Shown: positions 26,087-53,834 of the stretch, one piece after another
How the letters are laid out: every line of letters begins with the position of its first letter
How positions within the stretch are numbered: position 1 is the first letter of the stretch
Made by a program: the position numbers and the translations under genes
DNA from: a virus
DNA: 64,000 nt
Virus record (IMG/VR): IMGVR_UViG_3300032249_000542
Span: 105,778-169,777 of that record
Direction: 5' to 3' (one strand)
The notes under the pieces: model-generated
Databases searched by the model: none
What the model was told of the DNA's origin: nothing
What the model saw: the letters and a program-made list of their open reading frames with translations, nothing else

Positions 26087-26115
26087 TTGACATAAAGCGG
26101 GTTACCATGTATAAT
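26087..26115 (+). promoter_or_regulatory. Early sigma70 promoter (perfect consensus)
   Basis: TTGACA-N17-TATAAT. Confidence 0.9.
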
Positions 26116-26361: not shown

Positions 26362-28608
26362 ATGCAGATTACCGCTGAAAGTAAATCACAGCTTGCTAAA
26401 CTAATGGCAAGCGAAAATCTAACGGTGCAACACCGTAAAACCTCAACCGCATATTTTCTACCTAAAGAGCGTGTCCTCGTATGTCCTATCTGGCAAGATA
26501 TGGCAGGTGACCTTTATGACCTTTGCATGGGTCATGAGGTTGGTCATGCTTTATATACTCCTGTCGAAGGTTGGCATAATGCTGCTTCGAACAAAGGCAA
26601 GAACTATAAGCACTTCCTGAACATTGTGGAAGATGCCCGTATCGAGAAAAAAATCAAACGTAAATACCCAGGGTTAACTCGCCAGTTTTCTAGTGCATAT
26701 AAAAAACTAGTTGACCGTGATTTCTTTGGTATCGAAAAACGTATAGCACCTTTAACATTTATTGACCGCATCAATCTTGAAACAAAGGTTGGTCAATATA
26801 TTAATACTGAATTTCAAAACGAAATTGAAAAGCAATTACTTGCTGAAGTAAATGCTCTGGAAACATGGGATGATGTTGTTCGTGTTACAGATAAAATCTG
26901 GGAATACTCAAAATCCGAACAACAAGAATTGATGGAAGAATGGTATAAGAGTAATCCATCATATCCTGTTGGTGATGATGGTGAGGACCTTGATGATGAT
27001 TCGTCAGAATTTGGTGATGCTGATTTTGATTCTGATGAATTCGATGAAGGCGATTTTGCTGAAGGTGGTCAATCCGATAAATCTGAAAACCAAGAAGATG
27101 ATGATGGTTCTGGTGAGTATGAGGATATCAAAGATAGTACACCATCTGAATCCGACAAAGGTTTTCAACCTCGTGCTGAAACCGATGAAAATTATCGCCG
27201 TAATGAATTAAGTCTTTTGGATGAATCATCTAAAGAATATGTTTACGTGAGTGTTCCATCAAAAATTAATCTAAATCAAATCATTACACCTGCAAAGCGT
27301 GTACATGAATTGATGATGGAATTCTACACACACTATTATAATGGAAATGTAGAAAGTATAACAAACACATACCTTAACGATTTCAAACAAAAGAATGATC
27401 GTTACATATCATTACTTGCAAAAGAATTTGAAATGCGTAAGGCAGCATCTAAGTTTTCCAAAGCAAAAATATCTGAGACTGGTGATATTGATATTAATAA
27501 AATTTACAAGTATCAAATCGATGATACCATCTTTAAAAAGATGATGCGAGTACCTAAAGGTAAATCACACGGTCTGGTTTTGTTGTTAGACAAATCTGGT
27601 TCTATGTCAGATAATATGGCAGCATCGGTTGAACAAATTTTGGTGCTTGCATCATTCTGCCGCAAAGTGAGTATTCCATTTGTAGTCTATGGTTTTGGTA
27701 ATTCTATGGACGCACGTAAGATAGATTTTCCTAATGAAAACTGTTATACCAACGAATGGTTACAAAGTCAGTTCAGCCAAAACACCGGAGAAGTTTTTTT
27801 GAAACCAGTATTCCTTCGTGAGTATCTGAATTCAAACATGGGTGCTGCTGAGTTTCAAAAGTCTTTCAAAAGTCTTTTGTTGTTTAAGAGTTCATTTGTA
27901 TCTTCAGGTAGATATGGTAGATTGCCGTATCCTCCAAGTGAATCATTATCTAATACACCTTTGACAGAATCTATTTTTGCATTAAAAGAAGTAATTGTAG
28001 AATTCCGTAAAAAGTATAACTTGGATATTGTGAATACGGTTGTTGTGCATGACGGTGATGCTGATGCAGTTCGTCACCAACATGCAGATGGTAGACACCA
28101 AATGATTGCACCAGAGAATACTAATTGTTTCTTGGTTGACCGTAAAAACAAATTTCAAGTAAAGATTGATAATTGTCACAACGGTATGCGTGCTGCATCT
28201 ATGAAATGGTTGACTAAAATAACTGGTGCAAAAATTCATGGTTTCTTTATTACAGAATCTAACCTGCGCCAATTACGTTTGTCAATTGAAACTAAGTATG
28301 AAACCGACGAACTCAAAGAAATTTTGAAAATTCAAGATCGTTGGGAACAGAACAGAAAGTTGCAAGAGTATTCTGACAAGTATGCTAAACTTTTGAGAAA
28401 GCAAAAATTGTTGGAATGTGAAAGAGATGGGTATGGTAATTTCTTCCTTATCCCAGGCGGTGATGATTTGAAAGTTGCCGACGAAAGTTTGAATGTAAAC
28501 GGTAAGATTACAACAAGTAAACTTACCAACGCATTCATGAAAATGAACAAGTCTCGGAAGATTAATCGGGTACTTGTATCTAAGTTTATTGGTGGGATAG
28601 CGGTATAA
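26362..28608 (+). CDS. CobT-like protein: HExxH domain + acidic linker + vWA domain
   Basis: GHEVGHAL, NIVEDARIEK, D/E-rich linker, MIDAS LLDKSGSM...TPL...HDG; adjacent to the AAA+ gene. Confidence 0.82.
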   Translation: MQITAESKSQLAKLMASENLTVQHRKTSTAYFLPKERVLVCPIWQDMAGDLYDLCMGHEVGHALYTPVEGWHNAASNKGKNYKHFLNIVEDARIEKKIKRKYPGLTRQFSSAYKKLVDRDFFGIEKRIAPLTFIDRINLETKVGQYINTEFQNEIEKQLLAEVNALETWDDVVRVTDKIWEYSKSEQQELMEEWYKSNPSYPVGDDGEDLDDDSSEFGDADFDSDEFDEGDFAEGGQSDKSENQEDDDGSGEYEDIKDSTPSESDKGFQPRAETDENYRRNELSLLDESSKEYVYVSVPSKINLNQIITPAKRVHELMMEFYTHYYNGNVESITNTYLNDFKQKNDRYISLLAKEFEMRKAASKFSKAKISETGDIDINKIYKYQIDDTIFKKMMRVPKGKSHGLVLLLDKSGSMSDNMAASVEQILVLASFCRKVSIPFVVYGFGNSMDARKIDFPNENCYTNEWLQSQFSQNTGEVFLKPVFLREYLNSNMGAAEFQKSFKSLLLFKSSFVSSGRYGRLPYPPSESLSNTPLTESIFALKEVIVEFRKKYNLDIVNTVVVHDGDADAVRHQHADGRHQMIAPENTNCFLVDRKNKFQVKIDNCHNGMRAASMKWLTKITGAKIHGFFITESNLRQLRLSIETKYETDELKEILKIQDRWEQNRKLQEYSDKYAKLLRKQKLLECERDGYGNFFLIPGGDDLKVADESLNVNGKITTSKLTNAFMKMNKSRKINRVLVSKFIGGIAV

Positions 28609-28620
28609 TTCAAATATCGC

Positions 28621-28649
28621 TTGACATATATCCCGTATTGTGTTATTAT
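28621..28649 (+). promoter_or_regulatory. Early sigma70 promoter
   Basis: TTGACA-N17-TATTAT with extended TGn. Confidence 0.78.
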
Positions 28650-28679
28650 AGTTGTTCATTGTGATTAGGAGTTTATATT

Positions 28680-29852
28680 ATGGCAAGTCGTTCAGAGAGT
28701 CGTCAGAAGTTTTTGAATGCTGTTATCGCACTCGGTAAAACCGAAGTGACCCGTCCAGAAGTTTTCGCAATCGCTGAAAATATTGGAATCCCAGTACCTC
28801 AATGGTTTTTAAAAGAAGATGAATATCGTGCAGGTCGTGGTTTATATCGTGTACCACAATTAACTGCAAAAGTTTTAGCAATGCCTATTAAGGAAGAGCC
28901 TGTAATGGAAACTAAGTCTGGTCACCGTATCACCAATGTTACTACTGACCTTGAGACTGAGGACCTAGTACCTAAGGTTCATCCAAACTATGTTCCTTTC
29001 GGAAACTTTGATGATATCCTGAATATCGTTAAGTCAAATACTTTTTATCCCGTATTCATCACAGGTCAATCTGGTAATGGTAAAACCATGTCAGTTGAAC
29101 AGGCTTGTGCAAAAGCAAAACGTAAATTCGTTTGCGTATCAATGACACCTGATACCGATGAATCTGATTTGCTTGGTAACTACGTTTTGATTAACGGTCA
29201 GATGGAATGGCGTGACGGTCCTGTTACCGTTGCAGCACGACAAGGTGCTGTATTGTGTATCGATGAAATTGACTACGGTGCAAACAATCTTGCATCATTG
29301 CAACGTGTCCTCGAAGGCAAACCATTCTTGTTGAAGAAAAAGAATGAACTAGTTGCACCTGCTCCTGGGTTTACTGTTATAGCAACTGCTAATACCAAGG
29401 GTAAAGGTTCAGAGGATGGTCGTTACATGTACACCAACGTACTAAACGAAGCGTTCCTTGAGCGTTTCATTAATACGATGGAACAAGATTGGCCAACAAC
29501 TATGATCGAACGCAAGATCATCAAGAAAGAACTTGCTTCGGTTGGTCGTAGCGATGATGAGTTTGCAGAGAAACTTGTTACTTGGGCAGATGTTATTCGT
29601 AAAACATTTGCAGAAGGCGGTGTTGACGAAGTGATTTCTACTCGCCGTTTAGTACACATTACTCGCACCTTTGGTGTGTTCGGTAACAAGATGAAGGCAA
29701 TCGAATTGTGCTTGAATCGTTTTGACATTGATACCAAAACATCTTTCTTAGACTTGTACACTAAGGTTGATGCAGGTGCTAATACCGAAACTATCTTGGC
29801 ACAAACTCAGGAAGAAACAACACCTGAAACAACTACAGATATACCTTTCTAA
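28680..29852 (+). CDS. cobS: CobS-like (MoxR family) AAA+ ATPase
   Basis: GQSGNGKT, LCIDEID, TANTKGKGS, NEAFLERF, ISTRRL. Confidence 0.88.
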   Translation: MASRSESRQKFLNAVIALGKTEVTRPEVFAIAENIGIPVPQWFLKEDEYRAGRGLYRVPQLTAKVLAMPIKEEPVMETKSGHRITNVTTDLETEDLVPKVHPNYVPFGNFDDILNIVKSNTFYPVFITGQSGNGKTMSVEQACAKAKRKFVCVSMTPDTDESDLLGNYVLINGQMEWRDGPVTVAARQGAVLCIDEIDYGANNLASLQRVLEGKPFLLKKKNELVAPAPGFTVIATANTKGKGSEDGRYMYTNVLNEAFLERFINTMEQDWPTTMIERKIIKKELASVGRSDDEFAEKLVTWADVIRKTFAEGGVDEVISTRRLVHITRTFGVFGNKMKAIELCLNRFDIDTKTSFLDLYTKVDAGANTETILAQTQEETTPETTTDIPF

Positions 29853-29866
29853 TCAACATGATTACC

Positions 29867-29895
29867 AGAGAGAGTATTGACTTACTCTCTCTTTT
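29867..29895 (+). terminator. Terminator hairpin after cobS whose loop is the next -35 box
   Basis: AGAGAGAGTA-TTGACT-TACTCTCTCT-TTT. Confidence 0.65.
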
Positions 29896-29905
29896 GTAGT
29901 ATGAT
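29877..29905 (+). promoter_or_regulatory. sigma70 promoter
   Basis: TTGACT-N17-TATGAT. Confidence 0.72.
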
Positions 29906-29911
29906 GTACAT

Positions 29912-29955
29912 ATTGCAGAGAAAGACTGCCTCTGTGATGTTTCTAAAGCGCAGTC
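29912..29955 (+). ncRNA. Predicted H-type pseudoknot in a 5' leader
   Basis: S1 AUUGCAGAG/CUCUGUGAU; S2 GACUGC/GCAGUC; begins at the predicted TSS. Confidence 0.55.
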
Positions 29956-29975
29956 ATATTTTATGGAGTTTTTGA

Positions 29976-30251
29976 ATGAAGTCAGCTAAACAAAAAGTGC
30001 TTGCATATCTTTCTAAAGAAGATGGTTACAACACACTAACACCAAACAAAATGCAATCACTCTACGGTATTGCAAATCCATCAGCAACCATCAATGAGTT
30101 GCGTAACGATGGTCATGCGATCTATTTCAATAGCCGCATCAACAGCAACGGCGAGAAAGTTTCTTTCTACCGTTTAGGCACACCTACTAAGCGTATCGTT
30201 GCTGCAGGTATTGCTGCTATTCGTGCCCAAGGCGAACGTGCTTTTGCCTAA
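29976..30251 (+). CDS. Small winged-HTH protein
   Basis: KQKVLAYL...YGIANPSATINELRNDGHAI...FYRLG pattern; own promoter and terminator. Confidence 0.65.
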   Translation: MKSAKQKVLAYLSKEDGYNTLTPNKMQSLYGIANPSATINELRNDGHAIYFNSRINSNGEKVSFYRLGTPTKRIVAAGIAAIRAQGERAFA

Positions 30252-30270
30252 TTTCTAGGCGAAAAATCTG

Positions 30271-30311
30271 GAGAGTGGAGATATATAATAGTGTCTCCCT
30301 CTCTTTTTTTT
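30271..30311 (+). terminator. Intrinsic terminator
   Basis: GAGAG(T)GGAGATAT...GTGTCTCCCTCTC + long T tract. Confidence 0.8.
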
Positions 30312-30322
30312 ATGGATAAACT

Positions 30323-31117
30323 ATGGAAATACAAGTAAAAATAGATGAATTGAGAAAAAATAAACTGTTTGTTGCAACCCCAATGTATGGTGGTATGGCA
30401 AATGGCTTGTATGTCAAGTCCAGTCTTGATCTACAGGCAGTCATGTCAAGATACGGAGTTGAAACTAAGTTTTCTTTCCTATTCAATGAATCACTAATCA
30501 CACGAGCAAGAAATTATCTAGTAGATGAATTCCTCCGCTCTGAATGCACACACTTACTCTTTATCGATTCTGATATTCATTATGATCCACGTGACGTTAT
30601 CGCATTGATGGCACTTGATAAAGATGTTATTGGTGCTCCTTACCCTAAGAAGTCAATCAACTGGGGTAACATTGCAAGCGCAGCTCGCAAGCATCCAAAC
30701 CTTGATCCCAAAGAACTTGAAACCCTTGTTGGTGAATATGTTTTCAATGTGGTTAAAGGTACATCACAATTTCAAGTTACAGAACCACTTGAAGTGATGG
30801 AAATTGGTACAGGGTTCATGATGGTAAAACGTGAGGTATTCGGAAAGTATGCGGAAGCATATCCAGAGTATCGTTACAAACCAGATCATGTTGGTCAAGC
30901 AAACTTTGATGGTTCAAGATACATTCATGCGTATTTTGATACAGTCATTGATCCTGAATCTGAGCGTTACTTGTCAGAGGATTACATGTTCTGTCAATGG
31001 TGGCGTAAAATCGGTGGACAGATTTATCTTTGTCCATGGATGAAAACGCAACACATCGGTACCTATGCTTTCTCTGGCAATATGCCAAAGGTAGCGGAAC
31101 TAACTGGTAAACTGTAA
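30323..31117 (+). CDS. GT-A fold glycosyltransferase
   Basis: VATPMYGG, ESLITRARN, LFIDSDI (DxD), GTGFMM, LSEDYMFC. Confidence 0.8.
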   Translation: MEIQVKIDELRKNKLFVATPMYGGMANGLYVKSSLDLQAVMSRYGVETKFSFLFNESLITRARNYLVDEFLRSECTHLLFIDSDIHYDPRDVIALMALDKDVIGAPYPKKSINWGNIASAARKHPNLDPKELETLVGEYVFNVVKGTSQFQVTEPLEVMEIGTGFMMVKREVFGKYAEAYPEYRYKPDHVGQANFDGSRYIHAYFDTVIDPESERYLSEDYMFCQWWRKIGGQIYLCPWMKTQHIGTYAFSGNMPKVAELTGKL

Positions 31118-31461
31118 TGGAACAGATTGGCCGTAAGTTTGATGGTGAGAAACTAGAGTATGGTTTATTGCCACCGCTTGCATTAAAGGCCACGGTTGAC
31201 GTATTGACGTTTGGTGCTCAGAAGTATGAACGAGGTAATTGGAAGTACGTTTCTGAATCCAAACGAAGATATTTTGATGCATTGCATCGGCACATATGGG
31301 AATGGAAAGAAGGTGAACAACTAGATCCTGAATCTGGTAAACATCATCTAGCTCATGCCATATGTTGCTTGATGTTTTTGTATGAACATGATATACTCTA
31401 TTCTATTGATGACAATTTTAATAATGAGGCAAAAAATGAAGCTATCCAAAGAAACAGTTGA
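31117..31461 (+). CDS. DUF5664-like dATP/dGTP diphosphohydrolase-family protein
   Basis: GRKFDGEK, VLTFGAQKYERGNW, ALHRH, DPESGKHHLAHA. Confidence 0.8.
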   Translation: MEQIGRKFDGEKLEYGLLPPLALKATVDVLTFGAQKYERGNWKYVSESKRRYFDALHRHIWEWKEGEQLDPESGKHHLAHAICCLMFLYEHDILYSIDDNFNNEAKNEAIQRNS

Positions 31462-52250: not shown

Positions 52251-53834
52251 ATGAACTTTATAGACTTTCTAACTGAACAAACCGAAAAACACGCTGTCCT
52301 TGCATTTGGGAGAATGAACCCAATTACTTCCGGACATCAAACGCTTATCAATAAAGTTAAAGATGTTGCACAAGACTATGGTGCATCACATCATATAGTT
52401 CTGTCCCACACTACAGACCCTAACAAGAATCCTCTTACTGGCACACAGAAACTAAAGCACGCTAAACGTGCATTTCCTAAGACTAATTTCTCAGTCTCAA
52501 CTCCAGAACATCCTACATTTCTTCAACAAGCAGCTAAGTTACACCAACAAGGTGTGACACATCTACACATGGTAGGTGGTTCTGATCGTGTTGAAGAATT
52601 TCATAATCTATTGCACAAGTACAATGGTAAGAAAAAAGGTTCATTGTTTAACTTCAAAGATATACAAGTACATTCTGCTGGTGAACGTGATCCAGATGCA
52701 GAAGGTGTAACTGGTATGTCAGCATCTAAGATGCGTGAACATGCAAGTAAAAACAATTACAAAGAATTCAGAAAGGGTACACCTTCAACGATGGCTGACG
52801 AACATGCTAAAGATTTATACAACGATGTTCGTAAAGGCATGGGAATTAAAGAAGATATTAACTTTGGTTTTGAAATGTTACTTACCGAAGGTGTACATGA
52901 TAAAGGTATATTCAAAGCAGTATTCTTAGCAGGTGGTCCTGGTTCTGGTAAAGATTATGTGTTAAGTAATACATTAGATGGTCAGGGATTAACAGAAATT
53001 AATTCCGACAAGGCACTAGAGTATTTGATGGATAAGAATCAACTCGACAAAAGAATGCCTAAGAATGAAAAAGATAAGAGAGATATCATTCGTGGTCGTG
53101 CAAAATCAATTACAGATATTCGTGAACGATTAGCATTGGAAGGACGTAACGGTCTTATCATCAATGGTACGGGTGATGATTATGAGAAGATTGCAAGTAT
53201 CAAAGAAAAACTTGAAGCACTAGGTTACGAAACAAAAATGATTATGGTTAATACTGCCGATGAAGTTTCCCGTGACAGAAATGTTGAACGTGGAAAACTT
53301 GGTGGACGTACAGTACCAGAAGATGTTCGTAAACAGAAATGGGATTCGGTTCAAGCATCAAGAGCACAGTTAGCAGAACTATTTAAGAGTAACTATGTTG
53401 AGTTTGATAATTCAACAGATTTGAGAAATGCTGATGATGCAACAAGAAAAGCAAAACAAGATGAAATGGACGAAATCTTCAAAGATATTCAGAAATTTGT
53501 ATCTAAACCCCCAAAGAACGATGTTGCAAAAGAATGGGTAGCATCTGAATTAGATAAAAAAGATAGTACACCATTGATGAGAGCAAATGAAGCAATGCCA
53601 CATACAGAATCTGGTGCTGCTGAAAAAGCAAGAGAGATGGGATTAGATTATTATGGATTTGGACGTTACGGTAAAGATGGCACAGTATTGTATCGTTCGG
53701 TACATGATAAACTAGTTGATATGCGTAAGAGTGGTGCAAAAGAATCTACCAGTTCTTCAAGTTCGTCTAAACCAAAACCAAGAACTAAAACACCTGAACC
53801 TATTGAAGTTGATTACGAAAAAGATCCACAATGA
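52251..53834 (+). CDS. HxGH (cytidylyltransferase-like) nucleotidyltransferase fused to a P-loop (zeta/Pnk-like) kinase
   Basis: FGRMNPITSGH, KNPL, GSDR, MSASKMR; then FLAGGPGSGKD, INSD, RNVER; leader MNFIDFLTE. Confidence 0.82.
   Translation: MNFIDFLTEQTEKHAVLAFGRMNPITSGHQTLINKVKDVAQDYGASHHIVLSHTTDPNKNPLTGTQKLKHAKRAFPKTNFSVSTPEHPTFLQQAAKLHQQGVTHLHMVGGSDRVEEFHNLLHKYNGKKKGSLFNFKDIQVHSAGERDPDAEGVTGMSASKMREHASKNNYKEFRKGTPSTMADEHAKDLYNDVRKGMGIKEDINFGFEMLLTEGVHDKGIFKAVFLAGGPGSGKDYVLSNTLDGQGLTEINSDKALEYLMDKNQLDKRMPKNEKDKRDIIRGRAKSITDIRERLALEGRNGLIINGTGDDYEKIASIKEKLEALGYETKMIMVNTADEVSRDRNVERGKLGGRTVPEDVRKQKWDSVQASRAQLAELFKSNYVEFDNSTDLRNADDATRKAKQDEMDEIFKDIQKFVSKPPKNDVAKEWVASELDKKDSTPLMRANEAMPHTESGAAEKAREMGLDYYGFGRYGKDGTVLYRSVHDKLVDMRKSGAKESTSSSSSSKPKPRTKTPEPIEVDYEKDPQ

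Follow-up and report, generated by a model that had tools for sequence, protein, structure and literature searches.

The window analyzed here, i.e. the whole 64,000-nucleotide (nt) stretch at positions 105,778 to 169,777 of the IMG/VR virus record IMGVR_UViG_3300032249_000542, carries a short transcription unit for a small winged helix-turn-helix (wHTH) protein, and a 45-nt H-type pseudoknot lies at the predicted 5' end of the mRNA (Table 1). The pseudoknot comprises stem 1 (S1), a helix of 9 base pairs (bp) including two G-U, and stem 2 (S2), a helix of six Watson-Crick pairs. The two stems have no nucleotide in common and meet at a junction of 0 nt, so coaxial stacking of S1 on S2 is possible. 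The S1 hairpin loop measures 9 nt here (AAA + GACUGC), and a U29911-G29939 pair could lengthen S1. In the folded structure, loop 1 (L1) would span the deep groove of S2 and loop 3 (L3) the shallow groove of S1. The 3' end of the pseudoknot lies about 22 nt upstream of the start codon (ATG at 29976), in the region occupied by the 30S subunit and ribosomal protein S1, and the Shine-Dalgarno (SD) sequence GGAG is separated from the ATG by 7 nt.

The -35 and -10 hexamers upstream are of the sigma-70 type and together match the consensus at 10 of 12 positions. Given this near-consensus promoter at 29877-29905, transcription is expected to begin at about 29912, and the predicted transcript start (about 29911-29913) coincides with the first base of S1. 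With a promoter and a terminator of its own, the unit is insulated, as expected of a dosage-sensitive regulator. A preliminary description of this DNA had proposed an H-type pseudoknot with these coordinates, a 0-nt junction, an 11-nt L3, a U-rich spacer and a GGAG, and all of these elements are confirmed. Its placement of the knot at the 5' end of a stand-alone wHTH transcript with its own terminator also holds among homologs, where the promoter-leader-gene-terminator unit is conserved and the promoter puts the predicted +1 at S1 in most cases.

Table 1. Features of the wHTH transcription unit, with positions counted from the first letter of the window
Feature	Position	Strand	Remark
Terminator-like hairpin of the upstream CobS-like AAA gene	29867-29892	+	10-bp stem, then T-run
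-35 hexamer TTGACT	29877-29882	+	
-10 hexamer TATGAT	29900-29905	+	17-nt spacer from -35
S1, 5' strand AUUGCAGAG	29912-29920	+	pairs with 29930-38
L1, AAA	29921-29923	+	read from sequence
S2, 5' strand GACUGC	29924-29929	+	within the loop of the S1 hairpin
S1, 3' strand CUCUGUGAU	29930-29938	+	abuts the S2 5' strand, no base between
L3, 11 nt, U/A-rich	29939-29949	+	
S2, 3' strand GCAGUC	29950-29955	+	exact complement of 29924-29
AU-rich single-stranded spacer AUAUUUUAU, 9 nt	29956-29964	+	
SD sequence GGAG	29965-29968	+	9 nt past S2; GGAG column invariant in alignment A1
Winged-helix gene, 91 codons, HTH_39/PF14090 type	29976-30251	+	
Intrinsic terminator of the wHTH unit	30270-30311	+	long stem, AT-rich loop, T-run

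Relatives of the wHTH protein were collected from IMG/VR (339 confirmed from the first query alone; 569 protein clusters at 90% identity), and the 80 nt before the start codon of 41 distinct leaders were aligned with MAFFT without structural input (alignment A1). When the pseudoknot is imposed on A1, 96.7% of 581 cells are standard pairs. Compensatory changes, i.e. changes on both sides of a pair, occur in 11 of the 15 pairs; their absence from homologs had been named in the preliminary description as the outcome that would speak against its structure. Specifically, S1 shows double changes in six of nine pairs, and S2 is 100% paired with five of six pairs covarying. By contrast, pairing drops to 32-44% in controls with the 3' partners slid by 1-3 columns, and the covariation score of A1 (0.51) falls below 0.10 in these slid controls and is matched by 0 of 500 shuffles.

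A wider sample, obtained with a 50%-identity representative library and three further IMG/VR scans, comprises 209 loci and 88 distinct leaders. A blind search for the topology (S1, L1, S2, a junction of 0-1, S1', L3, S2') in the 70 nt upstream of the ribosome-binding site (RBS) finds a score of at least 12 in 81 of these 88 leaders, compared with 7 of 279 shuffled leaders. Similarly, when 67 leaders are aligned with a covariance model whose structure contains S2 only (model R1), S2 is 99.5% paired, and S1 is 82% paired although it was not fitted and is partly out of register (slid controls, 35-45%). Among the 81 leaders, S2 occurs in 23 versions and the S1 core in 21, and every version is accompanied by its complementary strand. 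For example, S2 appears as GACUGC, GAUCAC, AGUCGC, GGUCUC, GGUCGC, GGUUGC, GAAUCGC, UGAACCAC, UGAAUCAC, and GAGCAAC, and S1 cores include CAGAG/CUCUG, GAGAG/CUCUC, CAGUG/UACUG, GAGGU/ACCUC, AAGGU/ACCUU, GAGGA/UCCUC, GAGAU/AUCUC, and AAGGG/CCCUU.

The evidence for the pseudoknot is thus comparative, not thermodynamic. Nested-only folding of the window's leader by itself is unremarkable, with a minimum free energy no better than that of shuffles (z = 0.26); ViennaRNA cannot score pseudoknots, and the separate helix energies are -8.6 kcal/mol for S1 and -7.6 kcal/mol for S2. At the 12 inner pairs of A1, all non-Watson-Crick cells are G-U or U-G on the + strand (20 G-U, 0 A-C/C-A). Since a DNA palindrome would be strand-symmetric, this bias shows that selection works on RNA, not DNA. 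The stems also vary freely while the recognition helix of the protein is almost constant, so what is selected is the fold of the + strand RNA. Overall, the leader alignments show strong purifying selection on the pseudoknot as RNA.

The geometry of the 81 leaders leads in the same direction. The junction is 0 nt in 73 of them, the S2 junction pair (C29929-G29950 in the window) is C-G in all 81, the S1 closing pair is G-C in 61, and the S1 hairpin loop has 9 nt in 59. L1 is 1-4 nt long, exists in 18 variants, and shrinks from 3 to 1 nt as S2 lengthens from 6 to 8 bp. L3 ranges from 4 to 19 nt with variable sequence and no conserved core; it has at least 9 nt whenever S1 has at least 7 bp, and lengths of 4-5 nt are found only with an S1 of 5-6 bp. 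The geometry of S1 and S2 therefore co-varies as an H-type knot requires, which argues for one knot rather than two alternative hairpins. Between the end of S2 and the SD there are 9-11 nt in 54 of the 81 leaders, and 6-20 nt over the homologs. The region past S2 is U-rich and unstructured, with 61% T in its first 8 nt (51% in the whole leader) and at least 5 T within 8 nt past S2 in 52 of 81 leaders.

Most homologs also have a TTGAC-type -35 at the matching distance (at least five of six matches in 51 of 81), and the first base of S1 lies 5-9 nt past the -10 in 57 of the 77 leaders having a -10-like hexamer. Downstream, a hairpin with a T-run follows the stop codon by 17-31 nt in 68 of 74 distinct homologous contexts. 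The promoter-knot-gene-terminator cassette is thus conserved. With model R1, the 169.8-kb genome and five other large phage records each yield a single convincing copy of the motif, and every such copy is the leader of an HTH_39 winged-helix gene. Elsewhere in the window and genome, R1 gives chance-level matches only. The best stray matches (G000 52727-52768, and 172676-172725 in another genome) were rejected, as they lie inside or antisense to coding sequence.

The product of the unit is a basic, extremely conserved protein of 91 amino acids (aa). Its match to Pfam HTH_39 (PF14090) is slightly under the cut-off (18.9 vs 21.3 bits, E = 1.3e-3), and PF14090 is found in 71-98% of the members of the nearest Atlas clusters. 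An AlphaFold2 (AF2) model built from a 62-sequence alignment has a predicted local distance difference test (pLDDT) score of 90 and the order H1-H2-H3-wing-H4. The structural neighbors of the model are winged-helix DNA-binding regulators, i.e. Stf76, NiaR, NolR/ArsR/SmtB, MarR, and the BirA N-terminal domain (Z up to 8.6). Profile, model and structural neighbors all agree with the initial reading of the product as a winged helix, and the protein is of the PF14090 type. The protein belongs to PHROG family phrog_4973, which is without known function, and we found no paper in the literature on PF14090 function or on the wHTH leader. The recognition helix (NPSATINELRN-GH) is almost constant across homologs, and no co-variation is seen between this helix and the stem sequences. 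RNA-binding relatives were sought in the PDB by sequence, with weak rows only (including the PHAX RNA-binding domain at E = 0.035), and fold searches gave generic DNA-binding winged helices. At the C-terminus (30240-30248), all clades carry a strictly conserved hydrophobic [AT]FA tail (RAFA, STFA, NAFA), which suggests a partner-binding or dimerization motif.

A divergent clade (L081-L100), with proteins about 57% identical, retains the same topology and SD spacing with unrelated stem sequences. Most of its members have the S1 core AAGGG/CCCUU and the S2 GAGCAAC/GUUGCUC, and both L092 and L095 have the S1 core AGGAG/CUCCU and the S2 GAACGGU/ACCGUUC. In this clade, the wHTH gene starts about 60 nt past the CobS stop codon, with no recognizable sigma-70 promoter before it, so a 5'-terminal position of the knot would not be strictly needed for its function. 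The 7-bp S2, with a 10-nt loop and followed by U7, resembles a terminator of the upstream gene, so the knot may be linked with termination. Some members carry an additional palindromic insert AAAAGCTTTT...AAAAGCTTTT just upstream. In L149-L154 (about 55% identity to P0128), the leader has a short 5' hairpin (UCUCU-CGAA-AGAGA), then U8, then the SD, i.e. a simpler version of the same general design. Among isolated phages, the sole match is Stenotrophomonas phage DLP6 (48% identity), which has a leader hairpin without an S2 partner.

The comparative data indicate that the leader is a genuine regulatory RNA, which Rfam 15 does not contain, and that its function is probably the control of the wHTH gene's own translation or mRNA life. 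The suggestion that it lies outside known families and is possibly a new cis-regulatory RNA is upheld: both stems covary, and neither the window nor seven diverse homologous loci yield an Rfam 15 match, scans of the window region and these loci returning chance-level miRNA, snoRNA, and other rows with none at the leader. Known leader structures before genes of small nucleic-acid-binding proteins are mostly autogenous operators, and for this reason we favor the view, with a probability of roughly 0.4, that the pseudoknot is a cis protein-binding operator, most likely bound by the wHTH protein itself, for autogenous control in the style of gene 32. Autogenous repression through mRNA leader structures, among them several pseudoknots, is established for T4 gp32, gp43, and RegA and for ribosomal proteins S15, S4, and L20. 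Specifically, the pseudoknot would act in cis on the wHTH mRNA, and its likeliest ligand would be the basic winged-helix protein itself, reading shape and not sequence. With protein bound at about -22, the 30S platform or standby region would be inaccessible, and autogenous translational repression would then set the level of the regulator.

Several observations favor an operator of this kind. The spacing from S2 to the SD fits translational control, also in the promoterless clade L081-L100; the link to the gene is exclusive, with one copy per genome that is always at the wHTH leader; and the product has a small, basic nucleic-acid-binding fold. Other points weigh against it. Both the binding of a protein to the leader and the ensuing repression are inferred, and the fold resembles DNA-binding winged-helix regulators, not known RNA-binding ones. 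The recognition helix is near-constant and S1 and S2 vary freely, so any recognition must be of shape. Neither the SD nor the start codon is included in the pseudoknot, and 6-20 nt of unstructured RNA lie between knot and SD, unlike in gene 32. Partition-function folding of the 81 leaders predicts an SD accessibility that is independent of S1 (0.42, 0.41, and 0.42 with S1 free, enforced, and deleted, respectively). Finally, the more distant homologs L149-L154 and phage DLP6 carry a 5' hairpin only.

A separate candidate, i.e. a switch in which the purine-rich 5' strand of S1 mimics the SD and its CUCU 3' strand acts as an anti-SD toward GGAG, was rejected by the same folding of the 81 leaders, where the S1 3' strand is hardly ever the partner of the SD.

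More specific than a protein-binding operator, and somewhat less likely, is the proposal that an ordinary "DNA-binding" winged-helix protein moonlights as an RNA-binding translational autorepressor, reading the shape of the H-type pseudoknot on its own mRNA. If true, T4-like phages would have another circuit in the style of gene 32, independent of the first, and a phage wHTH family would have a defined RNA ligand.

The closest known system for an operator reading is the gene 32 leader of T4, T2, and T6. As here, it is found in T4-like phages and forms an H-type knot whose stems can stack coaxially, with a very short L1 and a 0-nt junction; it is also located at the 5' end of the leader and is followed by AU-rich unstructured RNA, an RBS, and the gene of a small nucleic-acid-binding protein. 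By contrast, the downstream gene in the window encodes a PF14090 winged helix and not the gp32 single-stranded DNA-binding protein, and the phage has its own gp32 gene elsewhere, with no R1 copy before it. Specifically, the leader of this gp32-family gene (G000:C1 47960; L214 1280-1365) shows no wHTH-type pseudoknot by model R1. The S1 of the wHTH leader is also longer (9 bp), and no sequence homology between the two leaders is established. Lastly, the spacer to the SD is 9 nt here (6-20 in homologs) vs about 40 nt in gene 32, and with such a short spacer a cooperative spreading of protein along the leader is implausible. The case for autoregulation at the gp32 leader is restated in PMC10690425, and the gene 32 pseudoknot is also without an Rfam model (PMC10690425).

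The rpsO/S15, alpha operon/S4, and rplT/L20 leaders also carry 5'-leader pseudoknots, which are bound by the downstream product, largely by shape. Unlike the wHTH leader, these knots include or abut the SD or start codon and mimic the rRNA site. In the wHTH leader both helices are upstream of the SD, and the winged-helix protein has no known RNA target to mimic.

Nearly as likely as a protein-binding operator, and similarly tentative, is a leader that works independently of protein, as a constitutive mRNA stabilizer and translation platform and not as a switch. In the promoter-bearing clades, the knot would bury the 5' end in a compact, strong block against 5'-end-dependent RNase E/RNase J, and the U-rich tract and SD would be offered as an open landing site for the ribosome (ribosomal protein S1). 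Stabilization of mRNA is a known role of the ompA 5' hairpin and of the T4 gene 32 leader, the latter being operator and stabilizer both. Such a role is consistent with the position of S1, which starts 5-9 nt past the -10, at about +1, in most leaders, and with the U-rich, unstructured region past S2. It would also account for a layout of 5' structure, U-rich tract, and SD that is common to the knotless homologs L149-L154 and DLP6, and for a recognition helix that does not co-vary with the stems. However, the 9-bp hairpin (-8.6 kcal/mol) would suffice to protect the 5' end, yet S2 is the stem kept more strictly (99.5-100% paired). Furthermore, one transcript alone carries the knot in a 170-kb genome with many early promoters, and the knot of clade L081-L100, with no promoter before it, is not 5'-terminal.

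The U-rich tract could also be read as part of a transcription attenuator, in which S2 and this tract would form a leaky or regulated intrinsic terminator, and the formation of S1 or the knot, possibly aided by protein, would set read-on. We consider this improbable. S2 is rich in GC, and a U-rich stretch often comes after it, with at least 5 T in the next 8 nt in 52 of 81 leaders and U7-U8 directly after an 8-bp S2 in L190, L175, and L130; in L081-L100, S2 and U7 trail the upstream stop codon like an ordinary terminator, and no promoter precedes the wHTH gene. However, the window's own tract (AUAUUUUAU) is weak, several leaders (L016, L062) have A-rich sequence past S2, and the T enrichment is modest for a leader with 51% T overall. 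In addition, the arms of S2 are 20 nt apart, which is far beyond normal terminator loops, and S2 is not called by a consensus terminator scan.

A small-molecule riboswitch of the compact pseudoknot type (preQ1-I/II, SAM-II, fluoride, guanidine-III) is very unlikely. The leader resembles the smallest aptamers in size (about 45 nt), in its H-type topology, and in its position just upstream of the RBS. However, compared with compact riboswitches (preQ1-I RF00522, preQ1-II, SAM-II, SAM-V, fluoride, guanidine-III), it matches no Rfam 15 riboswitch model at E values up to 10 in the window and up to 1 in the seven homologous loci. It also shows no conserved ligand pocket, with L1 in 18 forms and an L3 of 4-19 nt without a conserved core. 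The SD is in neither helix, no alternative SD pairing is predicted, and the regulated gene encodes a winged helix, not an enzyme or transporter, so that its class is not metabolic.

Equally slight is the chance of a put-like RNA, in which the nascent knot would bind RNA polymerase and promote read-through of the unit terminator into the downstream glycosyltransferase and replication genes. HK022 putL and putR antiterminate without protein factors and, like the wHTH leader, are promoter-proximal structured cis RNAs in a phage early transcript with a terminator downstream; here an early transcript opens with the knot, and its short gene has a strong terminator behind it. However, the put RNAs that act on RNA polymerase consist of two hairpins in about 70 nt and not of an H-type knot of 45 nt, the wHTH knot is not promoter-proximal in L081-L100, and the tight SD spacing would be left unexplained.

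Least probable of all is a DNA operator, i.e. inverted repeats bound by the winged-helix protein for transcriptional autoregulation at +1 to +27: the S1 inverted repeat does lie directly past the -10 with a fairly conserved GAG...CUC core, and the protein has a DNA-binding fold, but the imperfect inner pairs are all G-U on the + strand (20 G-U, 0 A-C), 23 S2 and 21 S1 versions face an unchanged recognition helix, and the half-site centers would lie 18 bp apart.

Among the precedents named in the preliminary description, the T4 gene 32 leader stands as an analogy, small pseudoknot riboswitches are weakened by the variable loops, and the type III antitoxins do not hold. The latter (ToxI, AntiQ) are pseudoknots that phages carry or mimic. 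They are, however, repeats of about 36 nt arranged in tandem before the gene of a ToxN/AbiQ endoribonuclease, and a ToxI-like antitoxin is excluded here by a single copy per genome, with no tandem repeat and with a winged-helix gene and no toxin gene downstream.

About 8,500 automatically predicted structured RNAs from IMG/VR are catalogued in PMC10690425, and the wHTH leader motif may be among these predictions. The element is a T4-like phage leader pseudoknot that is attached to a winged-helix regulator gene, not to gene 32. To our knowledge, well-supported pseudoknots in which both stems covary are seldom encountered except in riboswitches, at frameshift sites, and in a few autoregulatory leaders. 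The present one is short (45 nt), is backed by dozens of independent compensatory changes, and stands in a one-to-one relation with a PF14090 regulator gene that is highly conserved, functionally unstudied, and found in hundreds of IMG/VR contigs. As such, it offers a testable handle on how the dose of an early regulator is set in uncultured lake T4-like phages, for which we know of no MotA/AsiA paradigm. Should the wHTH protein bind the knot, they would form a new and compact pair of RNA and protein. The motif, absent from Rfam 15, is suitable for submission as a family.

The genome record is a complete phage of 169,777 bp with direct terminal repeats. By gene content the phage belongs with the T4-like phages, as it carries a gp32-family (PF08804) gene and the DNA of its CobS region matches that of T4-like cyanophages. 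Closely related sequence is present in runs labelled freshwater metagenome, and pieces with at least 90% identity occur within contigs of four freshwater metatranscriptome libraries. These metatranscriptome contigs cover the wHTH unit and begin upstream of its promoter (29810-29852), and as assembled contigs they show neither 5' ends nor strand.

The CobS-like AAA gene upstream of the wHTH unit (28680-29852) has AAA_5 and CbbQ_C domains. The loop of its terminator-like hairpin (29867-29892) holds the -35 TTGACT of the next promoter, and the -10 is located just past the T-run. This overlap of terminator and promoter upstream of the wHTH gene is seen again in many homologous loci (e.g. L001, L002, L007, and L016-L023). 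The terminator past the wHTH gene has stems of 12-13 bp that covary across homologs, and its loop and stem top are nearly always AT-rich, of ATATA type (ATATAG, ATATTA, ATAATA, TATATTA); this part could be a promoter-like element for the downstream genes.

Further upstream, the CobS-like AAA_5/CbbQ_C ATPase is adjoined by a 748-aa open reading frame (ORF) whose central region is acidic and which matches no Pfam family (region 26362-29852). Near-consensus sigma-70 promoters precede both the 748-aa ORF (26087-26115) and the CobS-like gene (28621-28649). Two genes past the wHTH unit, a 114-aa ORF (31117-31461) matches a dATP/dGTP diphosphohydrolase N-terminal domain (PF18909, E = 1.9e-32).

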